DNA from: Candidatus Nomurabacteria bacterium
GTDB taxonomy: Bacteria > Patescibacteriota > Minisyncoccia > Phycocordibacterales > CAIJYI01
Assembly: GCA_943356445.1 (NCBI GenBank)
Contig: CALREZ010000001.1
Location: 15,818 to 79,817, forward strand
Reading direction: 5' to 3'
Length of the DNA stretch: 64,000 nucleotides
The position numbers and the translations under genes are program-made. Position 1 is the stretch's first letter. Each line of letters opens with the position of its first letter. Shown in pieces: positions 3,492 to 58,650 of the stretch. The notes under the pieces were generated by a model that worked only from the letters and a program-made list of their open reading frames with translations, was not told the DNA's origin and ran no database searches.

Positions 3492-4632
3492 ACCTTTAAA
3501 TATCCTCGTCATCAACTGCGACTGGCGGAATCTTTTTGAAAAAGATTTTGACGAACTTCTCAAAAAAATGGATCGGTGTCTTATGCGCACCGAGCTCAAT
3601 AATTTTTTCTTTTTTTCATGGTCGGATAAAAGTTATGAAAAGCGCCAAGGCGAACGTTTCTTTTCCGTGCATAAAAAAACGATGTGGCAGAAATTCCGTC
3701 CGATGTTTGATCTCATTTCCGTTTTTGCTATTCCTCATATCTTAAAAAAACATCCGTTCCGTCCCGACGTTATTTTAGTCTACGATCTCGGTTTTCTGCC
3801 TGCGGCAAAAGCGGTAAAGAAACGCTTCGGAGGAAAGATTGTTTTATGTCTTATCAACAGGCCGGAAGAACTTGCCCGAACAAGAAAGTTTGCTGCCGTG
3901 AAAGCATCGTATTCTTTGCTTGGAGAAAAGTTTTTTATTCATTCTGCCGACATCGCTTACACTATCAATTCTTCCATGAAGCGGTACATTGAATCCCTTG
4001 GTTTTCCTCCTGATCGGATAAAAATCTTTTCATGCGATACCATTCGTCGAGATATTCCTTTTATTGAAAATTCCGTTCGCGGAACCGTAAGGCGGCAATA
4101 CGACATTTCTCCCGAGAAAAAGATTTTCCTCTCCGTGGGGAGATTGGAAGCCGAAAAAGATTTTCCTCGGCTTTTTGAAATACTTTCTCACCTGGATGAA
4201 AAATATCTGCTTATTATCCTCGGAAGCGGAAGCCTTCTCCCTGATTTTCAAAAGAGAGTAAAAGAACTGGGTATTGAAAATCGGGTTATTTTCGCCGGAC
4301 CGATAGAAAGAAAAGACCTTTGGAATTATTACCTGGATGCCGATATCTTTATGCTGCTATCCAAATCGGAAGCGCTTGGGCTGGTTTTTTGGGAGGCCAT
4401 GTATATGAATGTTCCGGTTATTGGCAGTATGGCGACCGGTATTTTGGAGACTATCGGGGGCGGTGGAGAGAGAGGTTTTTTGGTGGGGGAAAAAGATGAT
4501 ATACTGAGCATTGCTGAAAAAATAGACTTATGTCTTGCCGGTGGCGAGAAAATAGAAGAAATGAAAAAAAGAGCGCGGGAATACGTAGAAGTGCAAATGA
4601 AAAATACTCTATCCATTAACGATATCCTCTAA
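3481..4632 (+). CDS. glycosyltransferase family 4
   Basis: 383 aa. GRLEAEKDFPRLFEIL ... SEALGLVFWEAMYMNVPVIGS is a GT4 C-terminal domain. Confidence 0.75.
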   Translation: MSHKPLNILVINCDWRNLFEKDFDELLKKMDRCLMRTELNNFFFFSWSDKSYEKRQGERFFSVHKKTMWQKFRPMFDLISVFAIPHILKKHPFRPDVILVYDLGFLPAAKAVKKRFGGKIVLCLINRPEELARTRKFAAVKASYSLLGEKFFIHSADIAYTINSSMKRYIESLGFPPDRIKIFSCDTIRRDIPFIENSVRGTVRRQYDISPEKKIFLSVGRLEAEKDFPRLFEILSHLDEKYLLIILGSGSLLPDFQKRVKELGIENRVIFAGPIERKDLWNYYLDADIFMLLSKSEALGLVFWEAMYMNVPVIGSMATGILETIGGGGERGFLVGEKDDILSIAEKIDLCLAGGEKIEEMKKRAREYVEVQMKNTLSINDIL

Positions 4633-40181: not shown

Positions 40182-41642
40182 ATGCTTTTTAATTCATTTT
40201 CATATTTGATATTTTTCCCTCTGGTCTTTGCTGCATTCTTTTCTGTCCCCAAACGTTTCCAGACCAGCGTTCTTCTCCTCTCAAGCTGTGTTTTCTACAT
40301 GGCCTTCGTTCCGAAATATATCCTCATTCTTTTCTTCCTCATCACCGTTGATTTTTTTGCCGCTCAGGCCATTGAAAAAAGAGAAGGCATTGAACGGAAA
40401 AGATTTCTCCAGCTTTCCATTTTTGCGAATATCGGCACGCTTTTTGTTTTTAAATACTTCAATTTTTTCAACATAAATATCGCCTCCCTCGCCGGTTTTC
40501 TGCACTGGAACTATTCTCCGTTTCTTTTGACCATCATTCTGCCTCTCGGTCTCTCTTTTCATGTCTTTCAAAGCTTGAGCTATGTCATAGAAGTATACCG
40601 GAAAAAATATGCCCCGGAGAAAAATTATTTGACCTATGCTCTCTATGTCATGTTTTTCCCTCAGTTGGTTGCCGGGCCGATAGAACGGCCTCAGAATCTT
40701 TTGCCTCAATTCCATGTTTTTCATGATTTTGATCCGGTAAACGCAAGAAAGGGGTTGGAAAGGATGCTGTGGGGATTTTTTAAGAAACTGGTTATTGCGG
40801 ATCAGCTGGCTCTTGTTGTGAATGCGATGTTTGCGCATCTTCCTTCCGACGGGGTGGCTCTTCTCATCATGATGTTTTTTTTCTCCTATCAGATCTATTG
40901 TGATTTTTCAGGTTACTCTGATATCGCCATCGGCTCCGCTCTCGTGCTCGGATATGACCTTTCCGAGAACTTCAACCGCCCCTACGCTTCGCGTTCCATT
41001 GCCGAGTTTTGGAGGAGATGGCACATGTCGTTGTCCGGATGGCTTCGCGACTATTTGTATATTCCTCTTGGTGGAAATCGGGTTTCAACAAAGCTTCGCT
41101 GGTATTTTAATATCATGACGACATTCGTTCTTATCGGTCTTTGGCACGGAGCGAACTGGACGTTCGTGGCTTTTGGGGCTTTGCATGGAGTTTATCGTGT
41201 TGTTGGAGAGATAACGAAACAAACAAGAGAGAAGATATGGAAGATTCTCGGGACTCCAAGAAAAATCCAATCCGTGGCGCAAACACTTATTACTTTTTTT
41301 CTCGTTCTTATCGGTTGGATATTTTTCCGCGCTCAAAACATTTCTCAAGCAGGGCAGATCTTCTCGGGTATTGCTGTTGGAATCGGTAATTTCTTTGATA
41401 TGAATTACTTACGGTTTAAGCTTGGAAGGGGTCTTGGAATCGGAGGAACACAGCACGTATTTGCTTATGCCATGGTAATAGTGATGGAGATCGTTCAGTA
41501 TTTTCAGACACGGAAAAACACTTTCTATATTTTTGACAGCCAGCCGAGAGTTATCAGATACGGATGGTATTATCTGATCGCTCTGATTATCTTGTTTTCG
41601 GGGTATTTTGGGGAAACTGCCTTTATCTATTTTCAATTCTAA
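40182..41642 (+). CDS. MBOAT family O-acyltransferase (DltB/AlgI-like)
   Basis: 486 aa polytopic protein. N-terminal MLFNSFSYLIFFP and the conserved MBOAT His region RRWHMSLSGWLRDYLYIPLGGNR. Confidence 0.85.
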   Translation: MLFNSFSYLIFFPLVFAAFFSVPKRFQTSVLLLSSCVFYMAFVPKYILILFFLITVDFFAAQAIEKREGIERKRFLQLSIFANIGTLFVFKYFNFFNINIASLAGFLHWNYSPFLLTIILPLGLSFHVFQSLSYVIEVYRKKYAPEKNYLTYALYVMFFPQLVAGPIERPQNLLPQFHVFHDFDPVNARKGLERMLWGFFKKLVIADQLALVVNAMFAHLPSDGVALLIMMFFFSYQIYCDFSGYSDIAIGSALVLGYDLSENFNRPYASRSIAEFWRRWHMSLSGWLRDYLYIPLGGNRVSTKLRWYFNIMTTFVLIGLWHGANWTFVAFGALHGVYRVVGEITKQTREKIWKILGTPRKIQSVAQTLITFFLVLIGWIFFRAQNISQAGQIFSGIAVGIGNFFDMNYLRFKLGRGLGIGGTQHVFAYAMVIVMEIVQYFQTRKNTFYIFDSQPRVIRYGWYYLIALIILFSGYFGETAFIYFQF

Positions 41643-46387: not shown

Positions 46388-47884
46388 ATGCTTTTCAATT
46401 CGTTTTCTTTTCTCATCTTCTTTCCGGTTGTTACCGCCGGATATTTTCTTGCTCCGCACAAATATCGCTGGGCGTTTCTTCTTGCGGCGAGTTGTGTTTT
46501 TTACATGGCTTTTATTCCGTACTATATACTGATACTTTTTACCGCCATCGGAATTGACTATTATGCGGGCATAAAAATTGAAGATACGGAAGACGTGAAA
46601 AAGAGAAAAACGTATTTGATTTTAAGCGTGGTCAGCACTTCGCTTCTGCTTATCCTTTTCAAGTACTTTAATTTTTTCAATGCCAATTTTAAAGAAATAG
46701 CGAGTTTTCTGCATTGGAATTATTCCATTGGTTTTTTGAGTATCGCTTTGCCGATAGGGCTTTCTTTTCATACGTTTCAAAGTTTGAGTTATGTTATTGA
46801 GGTATATCGTCGGAAGCAGAAAGCCGAACGACACCTCGGCATTTATTCGCTCTATGTCATGTTCTATCCGCAATTGGTTGCGGGGCCGATTGAACGTCCT
46901 CAGAATTTGCTTCACCAATTCCGCGAAAGGCATGAATTTGATTACCTGAGATTAAGAGCGGGGCTTCAACGGATGCTGTGGGGATTTTTCAAAAAAGCGG
47001 TAATCGCGGATAATCTCGCCATGTACGTCGGTCTTGTTTTTGGAAACCCGCATCATTATTCCGGAGCTCCTCTTTTGCTTGCTTCGGTATTTTTCGCTTT
47101 TCAGATATATTGCGATTTCTCCGGCTATTCCGATATCGCTCTCGGTTCGGCGAAGGTTATGGGTTTTGATCTCATGGAAAATTTTAAAGTCCCGTATGGC
47201 GCAACGACCGTAACGGAATTTTGGAGAAGATGGCATATCTCGCTTTCTTCGTGGATACGCGATTATATTTTCTTCCCGCTTTCCATGGGATGGAGGAAAA
47301 TGGGGAAGCTCGGCATCGTGTGCGCCACGTTGGTTACGTTTGCTTTTGCCGGACTGTGGCATGGGGCGAGCTGGCTGTTTGTTTTCTTTGGTTTGCTTCA
47401 TGGATTCGTTCTTTCTCTTGAACTTCTTACTTCTCGGTGGAGAAATAAAATATCGTCATTTTTTCCGGACATATGTTCAAATATATTTGGCAGGCTCTAC
47501 GTCTTTTCTTTTTGGACAGCCTCGCTTGTTTTTTTTCGGGCGGGAACCTTTGCTGATGCGCTCTATATAGTATCTCGTTTTCCTTCGGGGATTTCCGAGT
47601 TTGGCCGAACCGTGGGGACGGCTCTTTTTCAGATGAGCGTTGCTCCTTTCCGAATGCTTTTTTCCACACTCCAACTGTACTATGGAAATTTGAGGTTCTC
47701 TTTTCTTTTGGGATTGGTGCTGGTCGTTATTGTTTCTGAAATACTGGAGTATAAAATAGGACTTTTTGTTTTACTCAACAAAATCCCCAAGATTTTCAGA
47801 TGGATATGGTATGTTGTTTTGGTTCTCTCCATAATGAATCTGGGGGTAACTACCGAAGTGCTGTTTATTTATTTTCAATTCTAA
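46388..47884 (+). CDS. MBOAT family O-acyltransferase (paralog of 40182..41642)
   Basis: 498 aa. About 55-60% identical to the other MBOAT by eye (MLFNSFSFLIFFP ... RRWHISLSSWIRDYIFFPL ... IYFQF). Confidence 0.85.
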   Translation: MLFNSFSFLIFFPVVTAGYFLAPHKYRWAFLLAASCVFYMAFIPYYILILFTAIGIDYYAGIKIEDTEDVKKRKTYLILSVVSTSLLLILFKYFNFFNANFKEIASFLHWNYSIGFLSIALPIGLSFHTFQSLSYVIEVYRRKQKAERHLGIYSLYVMFYPQLVAGPIERPQNLLHQFRERHEFDYLRLRAGLQRMLWGFFKKAVIADNLAMYVGLVFGNPHHYSGAPLLLASVFFAFQIYCDFSGYSDIALGSAKVMGFDLMENFKVPYGATTVTEFWRRWHISLSSWIRDYIFFPLSMGWRKMGKLGIVCATLVTFAFAGLWHGASWLFVFFGLLHGFVLSLELLTSRWRNKISSFFPDICSNIFGRLYVFSFWTASLVFFRAGTFADALYIVSRFPSGISEFGRTVGTALFQMSVAPFRMLFSTLQLYYGNLRFSFLLGLVLVVIVSEILEYKIGLFVLLNKIPKIFRWIWYVVLVLSIMNLGVTTEVLFIYFQF

Positions 47885-51154: not shown

Positions 51155-51213
51155 CGAACGCAGGAAAAAGCAACAAGGATAAAGAAAAAAGGGGATGGAA
51201 CGAGAAACGATAA

Positions 51214-51358: not shown

Positions 51359-51566
51359 AGAGGTTACGCTCATTGAAAAAGCGCCTTTATTTTGAAAGGC
51401 CACATACAAGTACAAATGCAACACAAATCGCAATTGATAAAAGTATCAGTTGCGCGTGCTAATAGAATTTTGCAAGAATTCGTTAGACGTAATTACGAGA
51501 ACAAAAGACCAAATAGCACAGCGATGCAAATTGGATTTTCTTTTGTTTCACTCTTGTCTTTTTTTT

Positions 51567-53050
<1,484 letters not shown>

Positions 53051-53362
53051 TTCATTTTATTGCGATCATCTTGTTTTCTTCGGAAAACAAAGATTGATTC
53101 GAAATGGCGATTGCTCAACCTAGTTGAGTAAGGCAATGGTTTTCTTGCCTTTAAATAAAAACCCCTTCAGCTTCTTTTGGTTAAAGAAGCAAACCCATAA
53201 AGAAAGAGTGAAACAAAAGAAAGTTAAATTTGCTTTCTGACTCTCGTATTTTGTGAAGCATTGCAAAATTAACCCGCATGATCTGCGGTTTTTTTTGTGC
53301 ATATGCAAAAGGTATCTCCTCACGCTATTTAAAAAATGGCTTGACTGTGTATTTTTTTTGTC

Positions 53363-53579
53363 GCCGGACGGGGTCTCCGACCGCTACTCGGTCAGTACAC
53401 CTTTTGGACTTTTTGTTTCGCTCACCGCTCACAAAAATTCTCAAAAGGTCTTGCGGAATGGGTCCCTGCCCATTCCTCACCCGTCCCGTCATTTGTGTAA
53501 CCATACAAACTTCTGTTTTTATACCAAACTTTATTGGGTAATTCAAACAAACAGACGGGGTCAGAGACCCGCGTCTGGC
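53363..53579. repeat. GC-rich long-stem inverted-repeat element, copy A (MITE-like / structured-RNA-like)
   Basis: gccggacggggtctccgacc (53363..53382) pairs with ggtcagagacccgcgtctggc (53559..53579). The interior shares the TTGTGTaACcA ... CAAACTTTATtGGGTaATtCAAACA core with copy B. Confidence 0.55.
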
Positions 53580-53637
53580 AAAGATTTGCTTTTGGTAAAC
53601 AAAAACAGTTTTTTTACATAATATCAGGAGAAGGAAG

Positions 53638-54036: not shown

Positions 54037-54060
54037 AGGAAAAAGGCGTTCTTTTTTATG

Positions 54061-54091
54061 GGACGGGGCCACAACCCCGTCCTTTTTATTT
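54061..54091 (+). terminator. rho-independent terminator
   Basis: ggacgggg-ccacaa-ccccgtcc followed by TTTTTATTT. Confidence 0.6.
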
Positions 54092-54094
54092 GCG

Positions 54095-54123
54095 TTGACG
54101 CGTTTTTGCTAAAAACATATAAT
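54095..54123 (+). promoter_or_regulatory. sigma70-like promoter giving a predicted leaderless transcript
   Basis: TTGACG (54095..54100), 17-nt spacer, TATAAT (54118..54123). The ATG of the downstream CDS is at 54130, 7 nt after the -10 element. Confidence 0.5.
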
Positions 54124-54129
54124 AAAAGA

Positions 54130-54660
54130 ATGAAGAAACCTATTTCAAAAACAAGCAAATCTGACTCACAGAAAAAACTCGCACCGGAAGTTCGTGAGGC
54201 TCTTGATTCCTATCATTTGGAAATGCAAAAATATGTTGATACTTTACAAAAAAGGTCTGACGAGGATATAAAGCGATATATTGGTTCTTTGACAGAAGAG
54301 TATCAAGGAAGAACTTCCGCCGTCGCGGAACAATTTTCGGGGTTGAACGAAAAGATAGATACCATAAAAGAAACGCTTGATGAACACGGAAGAATACTCG
54401 AAATGCACACCGAGATGATCGGTACGCTTATGGAAGACGTTTCCGTTCTAAAAGAAGATGTTGCTGTCTTAAAAGATGACGTTTCCGTTCTAAAAGAAGA
54501 TGTTGCTGTCTTAAAAGATGACGTTTCCGTCTTAAAAGAAGATGTTGCTGTCTTAAAAGATGACGTTTCCGAAATCAAAGATGAACTCAAAAACAAAGCC
54601 GACAAAACCGAAGTTATCCATCTTTCTCGGAGAGTTTCTGTTCTTGAACGCAATGTTTAG
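54130..54660 (+). CDS. coiled-coil protein with 14-aa tandem repeats, hypothetical
   Basis: 176 aa, strongly heptad-like, with a DVSVLKEDVAVLKD x3 repeat block. Start set at MKKPISK because of the promoter and terminator context. Confidence 0.55.
   Translation: MKKPISKTSKSDSQKKLAPEVREALDSYHLEMQKYVDTLQKRSDEDIKRYIGSLTEEYQGRTSAVAEQFSGLNEKIDTIKETLDEHGRILEMHTEMIGTLMEDVSVLKEDVAVLKDDVSVLKEDVAVLKDDVSVLKEDVAVLKDDVSEIKDELKNKADKTEVIHLSRRVSVLERNV
54436..54572 (+). repeat. 42-nt perfect/near-perfect tandem repeat x3.3 inside the CDS
   Basis: gacgtttccgttctaaaagaagatgttgctgtcttaaaagat is repeated at 54436, 54478 and 54520 (the third copy has 1 indel-neutral change), plus a partial fourth copy. Confidence 0.85.
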
Positions 54661-54725: not shown

Positions 54726-54749
54726 TCTTTTGTTTGGATACTTCAGTTT

Positions 54750-54835
54750 TTAACGTGGGGATTATCCTTCCGCCACTTTATTCTTATTCTCTTTGAGTGC
54801 TCCTTTTATTAACGTGGGGAACACTCTTCCGCCAC
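54750..54835. repeat. two 27-nt direct repeats with 59-nt periodicity
   Basis: ttaacgtggggattatccttccgccac (54750..54776) and ttaacgtggggaacactcttccgccac (54809..54835). Confidence 0.6.
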
Positions 54836-54915
54836 ATCATTCTGGAATAAGAATAGCAGTTTCGGAAAAAATGTCAAGTCAAGTGATAACCGGGGAAATG
54901 AGTTTATAAAGTTTC

Positions 54916-55048
54916 CGCCGGACGCGGGTCTCCGACCCTGTCCGCAACGTTTGTGTGACAAGACGAACTTTCTTTTTTTAAACAAACTTTATGGTGTCAT
55001 CCAAACATTCCAACGCGGTCGGAGACCCGCGTCGGGCGACGACGACGG
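54916..55048. repeat. GC-rich long-stem inverted-repeat element, copy B
   Basis: gccggacgcgggtctccgacc (54916..54936) and ggtcggagacccgcgtcgggc (55028..55048) form a 21-bp stem with 1 mismatch around a 91-nt interior. The interior is homologous to copy A. Confidence 0.6.
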
Positions 55049-58265: not shown

Positions 58266-58346
58266 AGAAGGTCTTTGATGAGGAAATTTTTAAAGTCGAG
58301 TAAATGATTGCAGTTTTTCATTTTTTTTGGTATATATAGAGTACTT

Positions 58347-58418
58347 GCGCGCATAGTTCAGGGGTAGAACGCTGTCCTGATAAGACAGAGGTCCTTGGTT
58401 CGATTCCAAGTGCGCGCA
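58347..58418 (+). tRNA. tRNA-Ile (anticodon GAT)
   Basis: Cloverleaf read by hand. Acceptor GCGCGCA/TGCGCGC, D arm GTTC ... GAAC, anticodon stem CTGTC/GACAG with loop CTGATAA, T arm CTTGG-TTCGATT-CCAAG. CCA is not encoded. Confidence 0.8.
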
Positions 58419-58468
58419 CAAACGACGGTAGCGTTAAAGTCTCTTTTATTTTGTCACTCTCTCGTAAT

Positions 58469-58540
58469 TATAAGACAGAGGTCCTTGGTTCCTTGCCCTG
58501 CCGTAGCGAAGCGGAGGAGGGGATTCCAAGTGTGCGCACA
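58469..58540 (+). pseudogene. duplicated 3' half of tRNA-Ile interrupted by a 30-nt insertion (tRNA fragment)
   Basis: taagacagaggtccttggttc (58471..58491) and gattccaagtgtgcgcaca (58522..58540) match the anticodon-loop-to-3'-end of the upstream tRNA. A 30-nt insertion sits inside the T loop. No matching 5' acceptor strand upstream. Confidence 0.6.
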
Positions 58541-58650
58541 GGGAATGAAAACCGGCATGAGGTACATCATGCCGGTTTTCTTGACTTCTTGTGCGTTTCA
58601 GGTAGCCTGTAGGGAGAATACAAAACAATATAACTAAAGGGGTTATTATC

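Follow-up and report, generated by a model that had tools for sequence, protein, structure and literature searches.

The stretch of 64,000 nucleotides analysed here (the window) carries an intact tRNA-Ile(GAT) gene that is followed by an orphan piece of a second copy. We give a probability of roughly 0.6 to the reading that this piece derives from an older tRNA-Ile(GAT) gene, of which it is the dead 3′ half, and that this gene was split by a hairpin cassette carrying a replacement tRNA. The observations behind this reading are the repeat in the window, its homology to nested loci in related bacteria, the constant breakpoints of these loci, the covariation of the two spacers (U and D) that flank the inner tRNA, and the decay of the outer copies. 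The window fragment by itself would be a harmless relic. It leads, however, to a recurrent layout in which a whole tRNA gene lies within the split remains of another, with a covarying helix and small hairpin inserts at three tRNA loops.

The tRNA-Ile unit of the window

The features of the unit are as follows.

58308..58336, + strand: putative promoter of the tRNA-Ile unit, read from the sequence and conserved in relatives
58347..58419, + strand: intact, presumably functional tRNA-Ile(GAT) (ARAGORN; Rfam RF00005, 71.2 bits)
58421..58469, + strand: spacer D, by homology to L007 the 3′ arm of the helix found around the inner tRNA in relatives
58470..58491, + strand: probable orphan 3′ half of an older 'outer' tRNA-Ile copy, piece 1 (22/22 identity)
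58492..58521, + strand: GC-rich imperfect-palindrome insert of 30 nt, CTTGCCCTGCCGTAGCGAAGCGGAGGAGGG, unique in the window
58522..58540, + strand: probable orphan 3′ half, piece 2 (18/19 identity)
58547..58584, + strand: putative intrinsic terminator ending the tRNA unit (inverted repeat I1)

ARAGORN, which the first-pass annotation had named as a check, called a single tRNA in the whole 64 kb, the tRNA-Ile(GAT) at 58347-58419. The 47-nt core of this tRNA recurs unchanged in 63 loci drawn from GTDB genomes and metagenomes, and by its sequence the gene appears to be the counterpart of the 'inner' gene in the nested layout of the relatives. The putative promoter consists of a -35 element TTGCAG (58308-58313), a 17-nt spacer and an extended -10 element TGGTATATA (58328-58336), and the tRNA starts 10 nt past the -10 box. 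The block TTGCAGTTTTyCnTTTTTTTTGGTATAT is kept 5′ of the first tRNA-derived segment in 11 relatives (L006, L007, L008, L010, L020, L025, L030, L058, L060, L063 and L074). A simple consensus scan did not call the promoter because TTGCAG agrees with TTGACA at only three of six positions; the terminator, a hairpin of GAAAACCGGCATGAGGT/ACATCATGCCGGTTTTC followed by a T-rich tail, was likewise not called by such a scan, and both assignments rely on conservation across the relatives. The terminator of L008 is the same one with compensatory changes (AATCGGCATGACG...CGTCATGCCGATT), and there it stands directly 3′ of the intact tRNA, which indicates that the window fragment occupies the place where the original gene ended.

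The duplicated fragment itself, which the first-pass annotation had noticed 50 nt 3′ of the intact tRNA as a copy of the part from the anticodon loop to the 3′ end, is real. A repeat finder matched 58380-58401 with 58470-58491 at 22/22 nt and 58402-58420 with 58522-58540 at 18/19 nt, the lone difference being the C to T substitution in the 3′ acceptor strand that had been noted before. A near-perfect repeat of 41 nt is far beyond chance for 64 kb. The first piece contains ATAA of the anticodon loop and TTC of the T loop, with the 3′ side of the anticodon stem, the variable loop and the 5′ side of the T stem in between. The second contains GATT, the remainder of the T loop, and ACA, with the 3′ sides of the T and acceptor stems in between; the 30-nt insert lies exactly between TTC and GATT, where it had been placed. 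The fragment starts at tRNA position 34-36, as do the 3′ copies of 16 other loci, and its homology stops 2 nt beyond the discriminator base, likewise in the relatives. The same arrangement is present base for base in an ENA assembly (L002/L004), and also in a Logan assembly (L003/L005) whose contigs break within the repeat. As the sequence agrees in three independent assemblies, the arrangement is not an assembly artefact.

The spacer D of the window is 94% identical to the D of L007, and its core, GTTAAAGTCTCTTTTATTTT, matches a part of the upstream spacer U of L007 exactly in reverse complement. This homology suggests that the window D is a vestige whose partner U was lost. Neither a U sequence nor a second tRNA 5′ half was found elsewhere in the 64-kb window, in agreement with the earlier statement that the fragment lacks a 5′ half; the former presence of both in this lineage rests on the relatives.

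Nested tRNA genes in related Patescibacteria

We compared 52 distinct Patescibacteria loci, all sharing the tRNA core of the window. As the loci were gathered by the exact 47-nt core, genomes whose sole copy is interrupted would be missed and the locus frequencies are biased. Partial tRNA copies were found in 35 of the 52 loci, and on both sides of the intact gene in 16. The full form is 5′half-U-tRNA-D-3′half, in which an intact tRNA-Ile(GAT) and its spacers part the two outer halves (L007, L015, L016, L022, L030, L041, L060 and others). The breakpoints are constant: the last nucleotides of the 5′ copies are CCTGATA (up to position 36), and ATAAGACAG opens the 3′ copies (positions 34-36). In the nested loci, the two parts of the host tRNA gene remain separate, with no restoration of the gene at the junctions; the window keeps the 3′ half only. 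This layout of a "tRNA inside a tRNA" is a recurrent one, present in many Patescibacteria (CPR bacteria). In the searchable full-text literature, which leaves most subscription-journal papers outside, we found no description of nested tRNA genes or such inserts in bacteria.

The outer copy stands at the ancestral place, with the promoter directly 5′ of the 5′ half and the terminator directly 3′ of the 3′ half, and it is the copy that decays. In L007, G19 is changed to A and G53 to T; the D stem is broken in L015 and L022, the anticodon loop is changed in L016 and L056, and the copy is truncated in L040. An uninterrupted tRNA copy was present in every locus examined, in part because the search required an intact core. 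At the same junction by the 3′ half, L030, L060, L041, L056 and L059 carry empty hairpins of the U:D type (designated 'X', about 75 nt), and L020 has tandem units.

The closest relative in which this region is present is L007, where the protein encoded downstream (121 aa) is 85% identical. Its locus reads promoter, 36-nt 5′ half, U, intact tRNA, D, 41-nt 3′ half, terminator. When the upstream protein (295 aa) was used as an anchor in GTDB genomes, no relative was found; this protein has only two distant homologues, and the contig of one of them ends inside the tRNA.

Covariation of the flanking spacers

The spacers U and D form a covarying helix. In an alignment of seven sequences, 19 of 38 pairs were changed on both sides, and 93% of the cells in the 38 pairs are paired. 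This level of covariation was reached by none of 500 shuffles, and slid controls yielded two to five pairs changed on both sides. The U of each lineage pairs with its own D at -21 to -59 kcal/mol (z -5 to -9), and this pairing is better than that with the D of every other lineage, except for two loci with an identical D. The helix also has conserved internal-loop motifs. The L007 unit folds into a single rod that ends in the tRNA (z = -8.6), in contrast to the remnant in the window, which shows no such fold (z = -0.2).

Proposed history of the locus

In the ancestor, the resident tRNA-Ile(GAT) gene would have been split in the anticodon loop, after position 37, by a hairpin cassette of ~190 nt consisting of U, a complete tRNA-Ile and D, with U pairing with D. 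The result would be the order promoter, 5′ half, U, tRNA, D, 3′ half, terminator, so that the cassette would break an essential gene and supply a working replacement in one step ('disrupt and replace'). We infer that the cassette arrived as a unit by insertion, either through an enzyme or through recombination with incoming DNA, and its manner of moving is deduced in the same way; among the matches listed for the ORFs of the window and those adjacent to the loci, no enzyme capable of mobilising a cassette of 190 nt was present, nor did the cassette turn up in free or circular form.

The nested unit contains two pairs of direct repeats (36 and 41 nt) that may recombine, and the pair used would decide which flank is lost or doubled. 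All of the expected products exist: the 3′ flank only (window and L044), the 5′ flank only (L008, L010 and L032), doubled flanks (L038 and L041) and the gene alone, preceded by the same promoter (L025). The 5′ half and U of the window lineage were probably lost in such a recombination between direct repeats, a deletion after which the promoter would have come to abut the intact tRNA, as it now does. D and the 3′ half would persist as a ~120-nt trailer transcribed up to the original terminator, and the fragment is presumed to have no function now. The T-loop insert would be a small GC-rich palindromic element, whose family settles in the D- and T-loops of redundant copies.

Insertion or local duplication as possible origins

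The nested layout may also be ascribed to local tandem or partial duplication of the tRNA, by slippage or unequal crossing-over, with later decay and no mobile cassette. In the anticodon-loop type, to which the window belongs, inner and outer copies are nearly identical and have lineage-specific acceptor stems in common, so that local duplication, or gene conversion after an old insertion, fits these stems as well as a fresh insertion does. The doubled flanks of L038, L041 and L032 and the tandem units of L020 further show that unequal crossing-over acts on these loci. Tandem duplication, however, yields tRNA-spacer-tRNA, and not outer halves with reverse-complementary spacers; nor does it agree with breakpoints that are identical across many lineages, or with empty hairpins of like build at the same junction.

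The locus L029 was recovered from five samples. Here an intact tRNA with its 15-19-bp flanking helix lies within the D loop of another, distinct tRNA-Ile(GAT), and this outer gene departs from the inner one by compensated changes in all three of its acceptor, anticodon and T stems. An outer gene of separate identity, with its stems compensated, cannot have arisen from the inner one by local copying, and this indicates insertion and not local duplication; L070 and L073 behave in the same way. The inner tRNA-Ile of L029 is distinct from the older gene that surrounds it and is possibly foreign. Taken together, these data make local duplication an unlikely source of the layout.

Small hairpin inserts in the tRNA loops

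The 30-nt insert in the T loop is unique in the window even at three mismatches, against 0 copies expected. It had been proposed that this GC-rich insert can form a small hairpin; it does fold (-9.2 kcal/mol), yet shuffled sequence folds equally well (z = -0.3), whereas related inserts fold better (z = -2.6 in L030 and -4.5 in L033). Homologous inserts occupy exactly the same T-loop position in L044, L030 and L074, and these inserts, with that of the window, are 74-87% identical as against 59-67% for the adjoining spacer. Copies of the family were found at T-loop positions in the window, L044, L030, L074 and L033, in reverse orientation at D-loop positions in L008, L031, L074 and L070, and at an intergenic site of L008 (1090-1122), the matching position of which in the window, near 51190, is empty. 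The window holds one family copy only. Judged by these sequences, the insert appears to be a member of a small hairpin-element family, which sits in the D- and T-loops of dead copies. There is no target duplication at the T-loop site of the window, and no transposase family appeared among the matches listed for the window ORFs and the ORFs near related loci.

The insert is common to the distant relatives L030, L044 and L074 and absent from the closest, L007, and this distribution needs loss by gene conversion or repeated site-specific gain. A rule of orientation, forward in T loops and reverse in D loops, holds only for copies with the GTAGC..GCGAAG loop; it was not relied on because L029 and L055 carry forward CTTGCC...GAAG hairpins in their D loops. 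We also considered a designed helix in which the D-loop insert pairs with the T-loop insert. The geometry speaks against it, and since the sequences are palindromic, such pairing is indistinguishable from two separate hairpins.

Small palindromic repeats are known from several genomes, such as the Rickettsia palindromic elements, REP/BIME, the GC clusters of yeast mitochondria and the double-hairpin elements of fungi. By their general description, these resemble the present family in being GC-rich imperfect palindromes of 30-40 nt in an AT-rich genome, in their presence or absence at matching sites, in nested copies (here L070) and in being tolerated in structural RNA genes. The family described here differs in its low copy number (one in this 64-kb window), in being mostly tied to tRNA-derived sequence, and in that no target duplication or linked transposase was found.

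Possible role of the fragment in RNA

The covariation of U and D and the conserved internal-loop motifs could also reflect a role in RNA processing instead of mobility. The trailer, that is D and the T-arm-like fragment with its hairpin, may accordingly be kept for a role in the transcript; it could be a tRNA processing signal, a decoy for a tRNA-binding enzyme or toxin, or a small RNA. Since the fragment lies between the conserved promoter and terminator, it is expected to be transcribed with the tRNA, and the better conservation of the T-loop insert than of the adjoining spacer across distant lineages also agrees with a function. In Archaea, tRNA introns occur at D-loop, 37/38 and T-loop positions, another small RNA can lie within a tRNA intron, and split and permuted tRNAs exist. 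The positions of the inserts described here (D loop, 37/38 and T loop) echo these sites, and in its extreme version the functional reading holds that the hairpins are intron-like and removed from the RNA, as in the disrupted tRNA genes of Archaea. Both systems have short GC-rich hairpin-forming inserts in the D loop, after position 37 and in the T loop, and the tRNA halves found here can be joined on paper into a tRNA.

Several findings speak against a function. The window has no helix partner U and its remnant folds as expected by chance, close relatives dispense with the fragment (L008) or with the insert (L007), the outer copies gather changes at universally conserved tRNA positions, and the hairpin occurs in both orientations and at a site outside tRNA. 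As regards archaeal-type introns, these loci differ in their bacterial hosts, in the decay of the interrupted copies, in inserts of both orientations and in an uninterrupted copy that is always present, partly by design of the search. By eye, no bulge-helix-bulge motif could be drawn at the junctions of the window, L007 and L029; the 5′ junction is a three-way junction with a small hairpin, and has no 4-bp helix between two 3-nt bulges. Archaeal-type introns require exons that are needed and intact, and the outer copies are mutated (G19, G53, D stem, anticodon loop) or truncated. At the gathering score, Rfam gave no group I, intron, ribozyme or leader family in the window, and at E<=1 only tRNA, 16S and chance-level matches in seven related nested loci. 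A hammerhead-like reading of CUGAUA...GAAA, which spans the 5′ half and U, was dropped since the required stem order is absent by eye. A functional role of the trailer thus seems improbable to us.

The integrase reading

The first-pass annotation had interpreted the two copies as a scar left by a tyrosine integrase. What stands of this interpretation is that the fragment is probably the relic of an insertion into a tRNA anticodon loop; no integrase, cargo or attP that would make the copies attL and attR was found. The reading in which a phage or island with a tyrosine integrase entered at the anticodon loop and was then deleted, leaving the tRNA as attL and the fragment as attR, agrees with the fragment of the window lacking a 5′ half and with a direct repeat beside an intact tRNA that spans the anticodon loop to just beyond the gene's 3′ terminus, as attP/attB identity at tRNA genes usually does. 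It is nevertheless very unlikely: relatives have upstream 5′ halves, which a duplication of the attP type does not produce, U and D are complementary and covary, as random deletion remnants of different prophages would not, and an occupied version of the site, which had been suggested as a check, did not appear, the material between the tRNA and its copies being never longer than about 200 nt and never coding in the 52 distinct loci.

By Pfam, none of the 10 ORFs nearest the tRNA matched an integrase or transposase; for the remaining 46 ORFs of the window, the best 25 of 27 matched families in PHROGs included none; and no integrase or transposase recurred in 93 ORFs beside 34 fragment-bearing loci, among the matches listed (top 25 families). 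The first-pass annotation had also suggested an integrase search outside the window; the annotated genes of the adjoining stretch of about 10 kb include none. In 2.9 million viral contigs (IMG/VR), there was no match to the insert, the tRNA 3′ half (two versions) or the tRNA core. The alternative proposal that the 5.3-kb block between 16S and the tRNA is the cargo is not supported either: the block has no tRNA fragment at its far end and no mobility genes; in relatives, the 16S-to-tRNA block merely differs in length (0.7 kb in L007 and 1.8 kb in L008). L018 was considered as an occupied site and rejected, as its downstream GC-rich DNA is like the rest of the genome, with no clear integrase-like ORF by eye.

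Comparison with known systems and significance

The 'disrupt and replace' logic of the proposed cassette has a parallel in phages. Guerrero-Bustamante and Hatfull (2024, PMC10865867) reported tRNA-dependent lysogeny in actinobacteriophages, in which a whole temperate phage integrates through a tyrosine integrase at a shared core of ~10 bp. The unit proposed here differs from it in its size of ~190 nt, in having the tRNA as its sole gene, in being bounded by a covarying hairpin, and in that no integrase or phage was found. In the same phylum, a 2026 report (PMC13011429) described self-splicing introns in tRNA anticodon loops, for example at 35/36, in sole gene copies. Those introns share with the present loci the phylum and the insertion into tRNA anticodon loops; the loci described here differ in matching no group I model, in having an entire tRNA within the insert, and in that the tRNA gene which receives it is dead. 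By a term search, the report was not found to mention inserts in the T loop or T arm, pseudogenes or duplicated copies of tRNAs.

As a tentative idea, which we regard as possible, Patescibacteria may harbour undescribed protein-less miniature hairpin elements in the D, anticodon and T loops of their tRNA genes, some of them tipped with a complete replacement tRNA gene. The window fragment would be one decayed footprint of such a system. A bolder version supposes that the hairpin elements are removed or processed at the RNA level and would be a bacterial counterpart of the archaeal disrupted tRNA genes. If the cassette is mobile, it would be a minimal selfish element that destroys an essential gene and becomes indispensable by bringing its replacement, and would offer a route for tRNA-gene exchange between CPR lineages. 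If the helix serves RNA processing, it would represent a new bacterial pre-tRNA architecture. In practical terms, the repeats break short-read assemblies, as observed in the Logan contigs, and could mislead tRNA annotation and the predictors of att sites and prophages in CPR genomes.

Nested tRNA-Ile loci

The tRNA-Ile(GAT) gene is the sole tRNA gene in the window (ARAGORN; Rfam, 71.2 bits), and a partial copy of it follows downstream. The features of this unit are as follows.

58308-58336, promoter (TTGCAG, 17 nt, TGGTATATA), read from the sequence and conserved in relatives
58347-58419, intact tRNA-Ile(GAT)
58470-58491, exact repeat of 58380-58401 (22/22), starting 50 nt downstream of the tRNA
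58492-58521, 30-nt GC-rich block separating both repeat pieces exactly after the T-loop TTC
58522-58540, repeat of 58402-58420 with a single C-to-T difference
58547-58584, hairpin terminator, read from the sequence and conserved in relatives

The first-pass annotation had described this anticodon-loop-to-3'-end duplication and an insertion between TTC and GATT of the T loop, and both were found as described. No further tRNA piece, 5' half included, was found elsewhere in the 64 kb, and the insert has no second copy in the window with up to 3 mismatches allowed. The ENA and Logan assemblies carry identical sequence, indicating that the feature is real. Since the promoter and the terminator bound the unit, the fragment would be transcribed as a trailer of the tRNA. 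Most likely it is a non-functional relic of a nested tRNA-in-tRNA locus, and its homology to such loci is well supported. As it now stands the feature is unremarkable, but it leads to an architecture that recurs and has apparently not been described.

Two short-read contigs of Logan ERR5863126 stop exactly within the repeated tRNA 3' half (L003 at its end, L005 at its start), and the contig of locus L006 likewise terminates inside the tRNA. Nested tRNA repeats of this kind fragment CPR assemblies at tRNA loci.

Syntenic relatives were found by way of a 121-aa protein encoded downstream, homologues of which are labelled Candidatus Parcubacteria or Paceibacterota by their sources; the organism is therefore placed in the Patescibacteria (CPR). 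In the closest relative (L007, protein 85% identical), the order is promoter, a 36-nt 5' half of the tRNA (last bases CCTGATA), a 66-nt upstream spacer (U), the intact tRNA, a 47-nt downstream spacer (D), the last 41 nt of the tRNA and terminator. The 41-nt half starts from ATAAGACAG and lacks the 30-nt insert, D is 94% identical to window 58421-58469, and U includes the exact reverse complement of the D core. The outer pieces joined on paper give a tRNA-Ile, and the whole unit folds into a single rod that is capped by the intact tRNA (z = -8.6). In a second relative (L008, 78%) the intact tRNA is preceded by a 5' fragment whose D-loop position holds a GC-rich insert, and is directly followed by the same terminator that stands behind the window's fragment; the layout of a third (L010, 55%) is similar.

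A wider search with the exact 47-nt tRNA core as probe gave 16 loci in GTDB species genomes and 47 in JGI/ENA metagenomes, or 52 distinct loci after deduplication, window included; this sample is biased because one uninterrupted core is required per locus. Partial tRNA copies lie within 700 nt in 35 of the 52, and on both sides in 16. The 5' copies stop at position 36 and the 3' copies start at position 34-36. Forms with a single flank, with doubled flanks (L038, L041, L032) and with a plain gene behind the same promoter (L025) are all present, as would be expected from recombination between the direct repeats of 36 and 41 nt. The window, like the distant locus L044, is the form in which D and the 3' half are retained.

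The same features occur at tRNA-Val(GAC) genes, upstream of tRNA-Ile in L014, L048 and L057 and also in L070 (oriented 323-550), with a 5' fragment, complementary spacers and a diverged 3' fragment; the D-loop hairpin of L070 is nested in another hairpin. At a contig end, L020 2215-2683 (= L068) holds at least four tandem 110-nt units, tRNA-Ile copies minus the first four bases with a 34-nt two-hairpin insert in the D loop, which could be a genuine array or a loop in the assembly.

The spacer helix and the outer copies

U and D are very different between lineages, but each U pairs better with its own D than with those of other lineages, except for two loci sharing an identical D. Pairing with the own D is worth -21 to -59 kcal/mol, with z of -5 to -9 relative to shuffled sequences. 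RNAalifold on seven units predicted the helix with both-side changes in 21 of 60 pairs. For the 38 pairs between U and D alone, pairing holds in 93% of cells, and both sides have changed in 19 of the pairs; none of 500 shuffles reached the observed values, and sliding the partner by 1-3 columns left 2-5 both-side-changed pairs and 42-52% pairing. Unpaired motifs are conserved within the helix (U side, CGnCGyTCGnGAAAAAT; D side, ATTTT..CTC.CT), and a small covarying hairpin directly follows the 5' half. Given the covariation and the conserved motifs, the helix is under constraint, whether at the RNA level or as a hairpin in DNA. The window has lost the 5' arm of the helix, and what is left there folds at chance level (z = -0.2).

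The outer copies appear to be dead. In L007 the outer copy is altered at the universally conserved G19 and G53; others have broken D stems (L015, L022) or altered anticodon loops (L016, L056), or are truncated (L040). Such changes argue against the splicing of outer copies into working tRNAs. By inspection, no bulge-helix-bulge motif could be drawn at the junctions in the window, L007 and L029, and Rfam gave no intron or ribozyme family in the window and seven related loci.

Origin of the nested loci

We favour the insertion of a hairpin cassette carrying a tRNA into a resident tRNA gene, which would have been followed by repeat-mediated loss of one side of the nested locus. The mechanism is inferred, and the inserting agent is its weakest link. 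In L029 (= L035, L039, L052, L069; the same sequence in five samples), an intact tRNA-Ile lies within the D loop of another tRNA-Ile(GAT) of different sequence, and the nested locus extends about 37 nt to the 5' side and 84 nt to the 3' side of the intact gene. The inner gene is bracketed by CTTGCCCCGCCAAATTTTA / TAAAATTTGGCGGGG, which form a 15-19-bp helix. The acceptor, anticodon and T stems of the outer gene all differ from the inner one with compensated changes, so the outer gene cannot be a local copy of the inner. Moreover, L070 and L073 have further layers of this kind, empty hairpins of the U:D build (about 75 nt) occupy the same junction in five loci (two in tandem in L059), and the outer copy always holds the ancestral place between promoter and terminator. 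A more tentative proposal, to which we give rather less than even odds, is that these are miniature hairpin elements of a new class, which carry tRNA genes.

A local duplication of the tRNA gene without any inserted cassette is conceivable from the window-type loci alone, because their inner and outer copies are almost identical. The different outer gene of L029, the further layers, the empty hairpins and the ancestral position of the outer copy make this unlikely.

The first-pass annotation had read the fragment as a possible scar (attL/attR) left by a tyrosine integrase of a phage or island. The footprint of an anticodon-loop insertion stands, yet none of the specific features expected after integrase action is borne out. 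Among the matches listed, there was no integrase or transposase in the window ORFs or in genes to about 10 kb beyond, and no integrase or transposase family recurred near the fragment-bearing related loci (93 ORFs). None of the 52 loci is an occupied site, IMG/VR gave no viral attP match, and the relatives also carry 5' halves and complementary spacers. A classical scar is therefore very improbable. The other suggestion of the first-pass annotation, that the 5.3-kb block between 16S and the tRNA is cargo, is not supported, since no second tRNA fragment lies at the other end and the gene content varies among relatives.

The 30-nt insert

Homologous inserts stand at exactly the same site (TTC^GATT) in L044, L030 and L074. 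All three are distant relatives (121-aa orthologue under 30% identical in L044 and L030; 83-aa orthologue about 45% identical in L044 and L074). Between the window and distant relatives, the insert is 74-87% identical, versus 59-67% for the adjacent spacer. Related sequences share the loop GTAGC..GCGAAG and the ends CTTGCC...GGCAAG. In L033 a related hairpin sequence replaces the T arm, reverse-orientation copies lie at D-loop positions of 5' fragments (L008, L031, L074 and the tRNA-Val fragment of L070), and copies are nested in one another in L070. A 33-nt hairpin of this family (CCTTGCCCGCCGTAGCCTTTGGCGAAGGAGGGG on the other strand) also occupies an ordinary intergenic site, L008:1090-1122, where it separates the stop of a Wzy_C/TPR gene from the terminator of that gene; at the corresponding place in the window (about 51185-51195) the hairpin is simply absent. 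These varied placements and this presence and absence indicate that the insert belongs to a family of small palindromic elements that evidently come and go. A second, two-hairpin family occurs at D-loop positions (L010, L020, L058, L059), and a third in the T arm of the L022 group. The window insert, its single non-coding GC-rich block of this kind, is short and folds weakly, with a z of -0.3 against values down to -4.5 in relatives.

Comparison with known systems

The 30-nt insert is similar to small palindromic repeats known from reduced genomes. Archaeal disrupted tRNA genes have a defining motif, and the interrupted gene is needed; the loci here share insert positions with them, but neither of these properties. 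The nearest concept is tRNA-dependent lysogeny, in which a phage enters an essential tRNA gene without rebuilding it and brings its own tRNA (PMC10865867); unlike here, what is inserted is an entire, integrase-bearing phage. A recent survey of tRNA-gene introns in Patescibacteria (PMC13011429) deals with group I introns, and in a term search of it neither inserts in the T loop nor duplicated copies nor pseudogenes came up. No description of bacterial tRNA-in-tRNA genes was found in full-text literature, the coverage of which excludes most subscription-journal papers.

Genomic neighbourhood

A cell-envelope polysaccharide cluster takes up the first 50 kb of the window. It includes two MBOAT-type paralogues (40182-41642 and 46388-47884) 6.2 kb apart with about 76% DNA identity in stretches. 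One ORF in 1-50000 matches the PHROG 'Avd protein of DGR' (E = 1e-13), which could mark a diversity-generating retroelement or be a 23S-intervening-sequence-type protein.

Protein genes separate the 16S gene (51560-53056) from tRNA-Ile, which has its own promoter; the distance from 16S to the tRNA is 5.3 kb in the window, compared with 1.8 kb for L008 and 0.7 kb for L007. Rfam found no 23S behind the 16S gene or anywhere in the window, and the rRNA genes are unlinked. The 16S 3' end (53030-53060) reads ...GGAACAATTTCATTTTA without the CCTCC anti-Shine-Dalgarno, and is identical in L007 (about 500-527) and L008 (about 3590-3615). GGAGG is absent at most window ORF starts, and several have a TATAAT-like box 7-12 nt 5' of the ATG, which suggests leaderless mRNAs.

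In the 5.3-kb block, a coiled-coil protein and a PP2C phosphatase are encoded alongside small ORFs; mobility genes are absent from it. Two copies of an element at 53355-53590 and 54915-55045, with 22-25-nt GC-rich inverted-repeat ends (GCCGGACGGGGTCTCCGACC ... GGTCAGAGACCCGCGTCTGGC) and interiors 75% similar, resemble a MITE or a long-range RNA helix; L021 has a related right end 25 nt upstream of the tRNA 5' half of a nested unit. Within ORF 54058-54660, six 21-nt tandem repeats (54412-54584) encode the alternating DVSVLKE / DVAVLKD heptads of the coiled-coil protein. Between this ORF and the inverted-repeat element, non-coding DNA at 54728-54843 holds a pair of neighbouring 57-nt direct repeats (74% identity), both of which contain AACGTGGGGA..CTTCCGCCAC.
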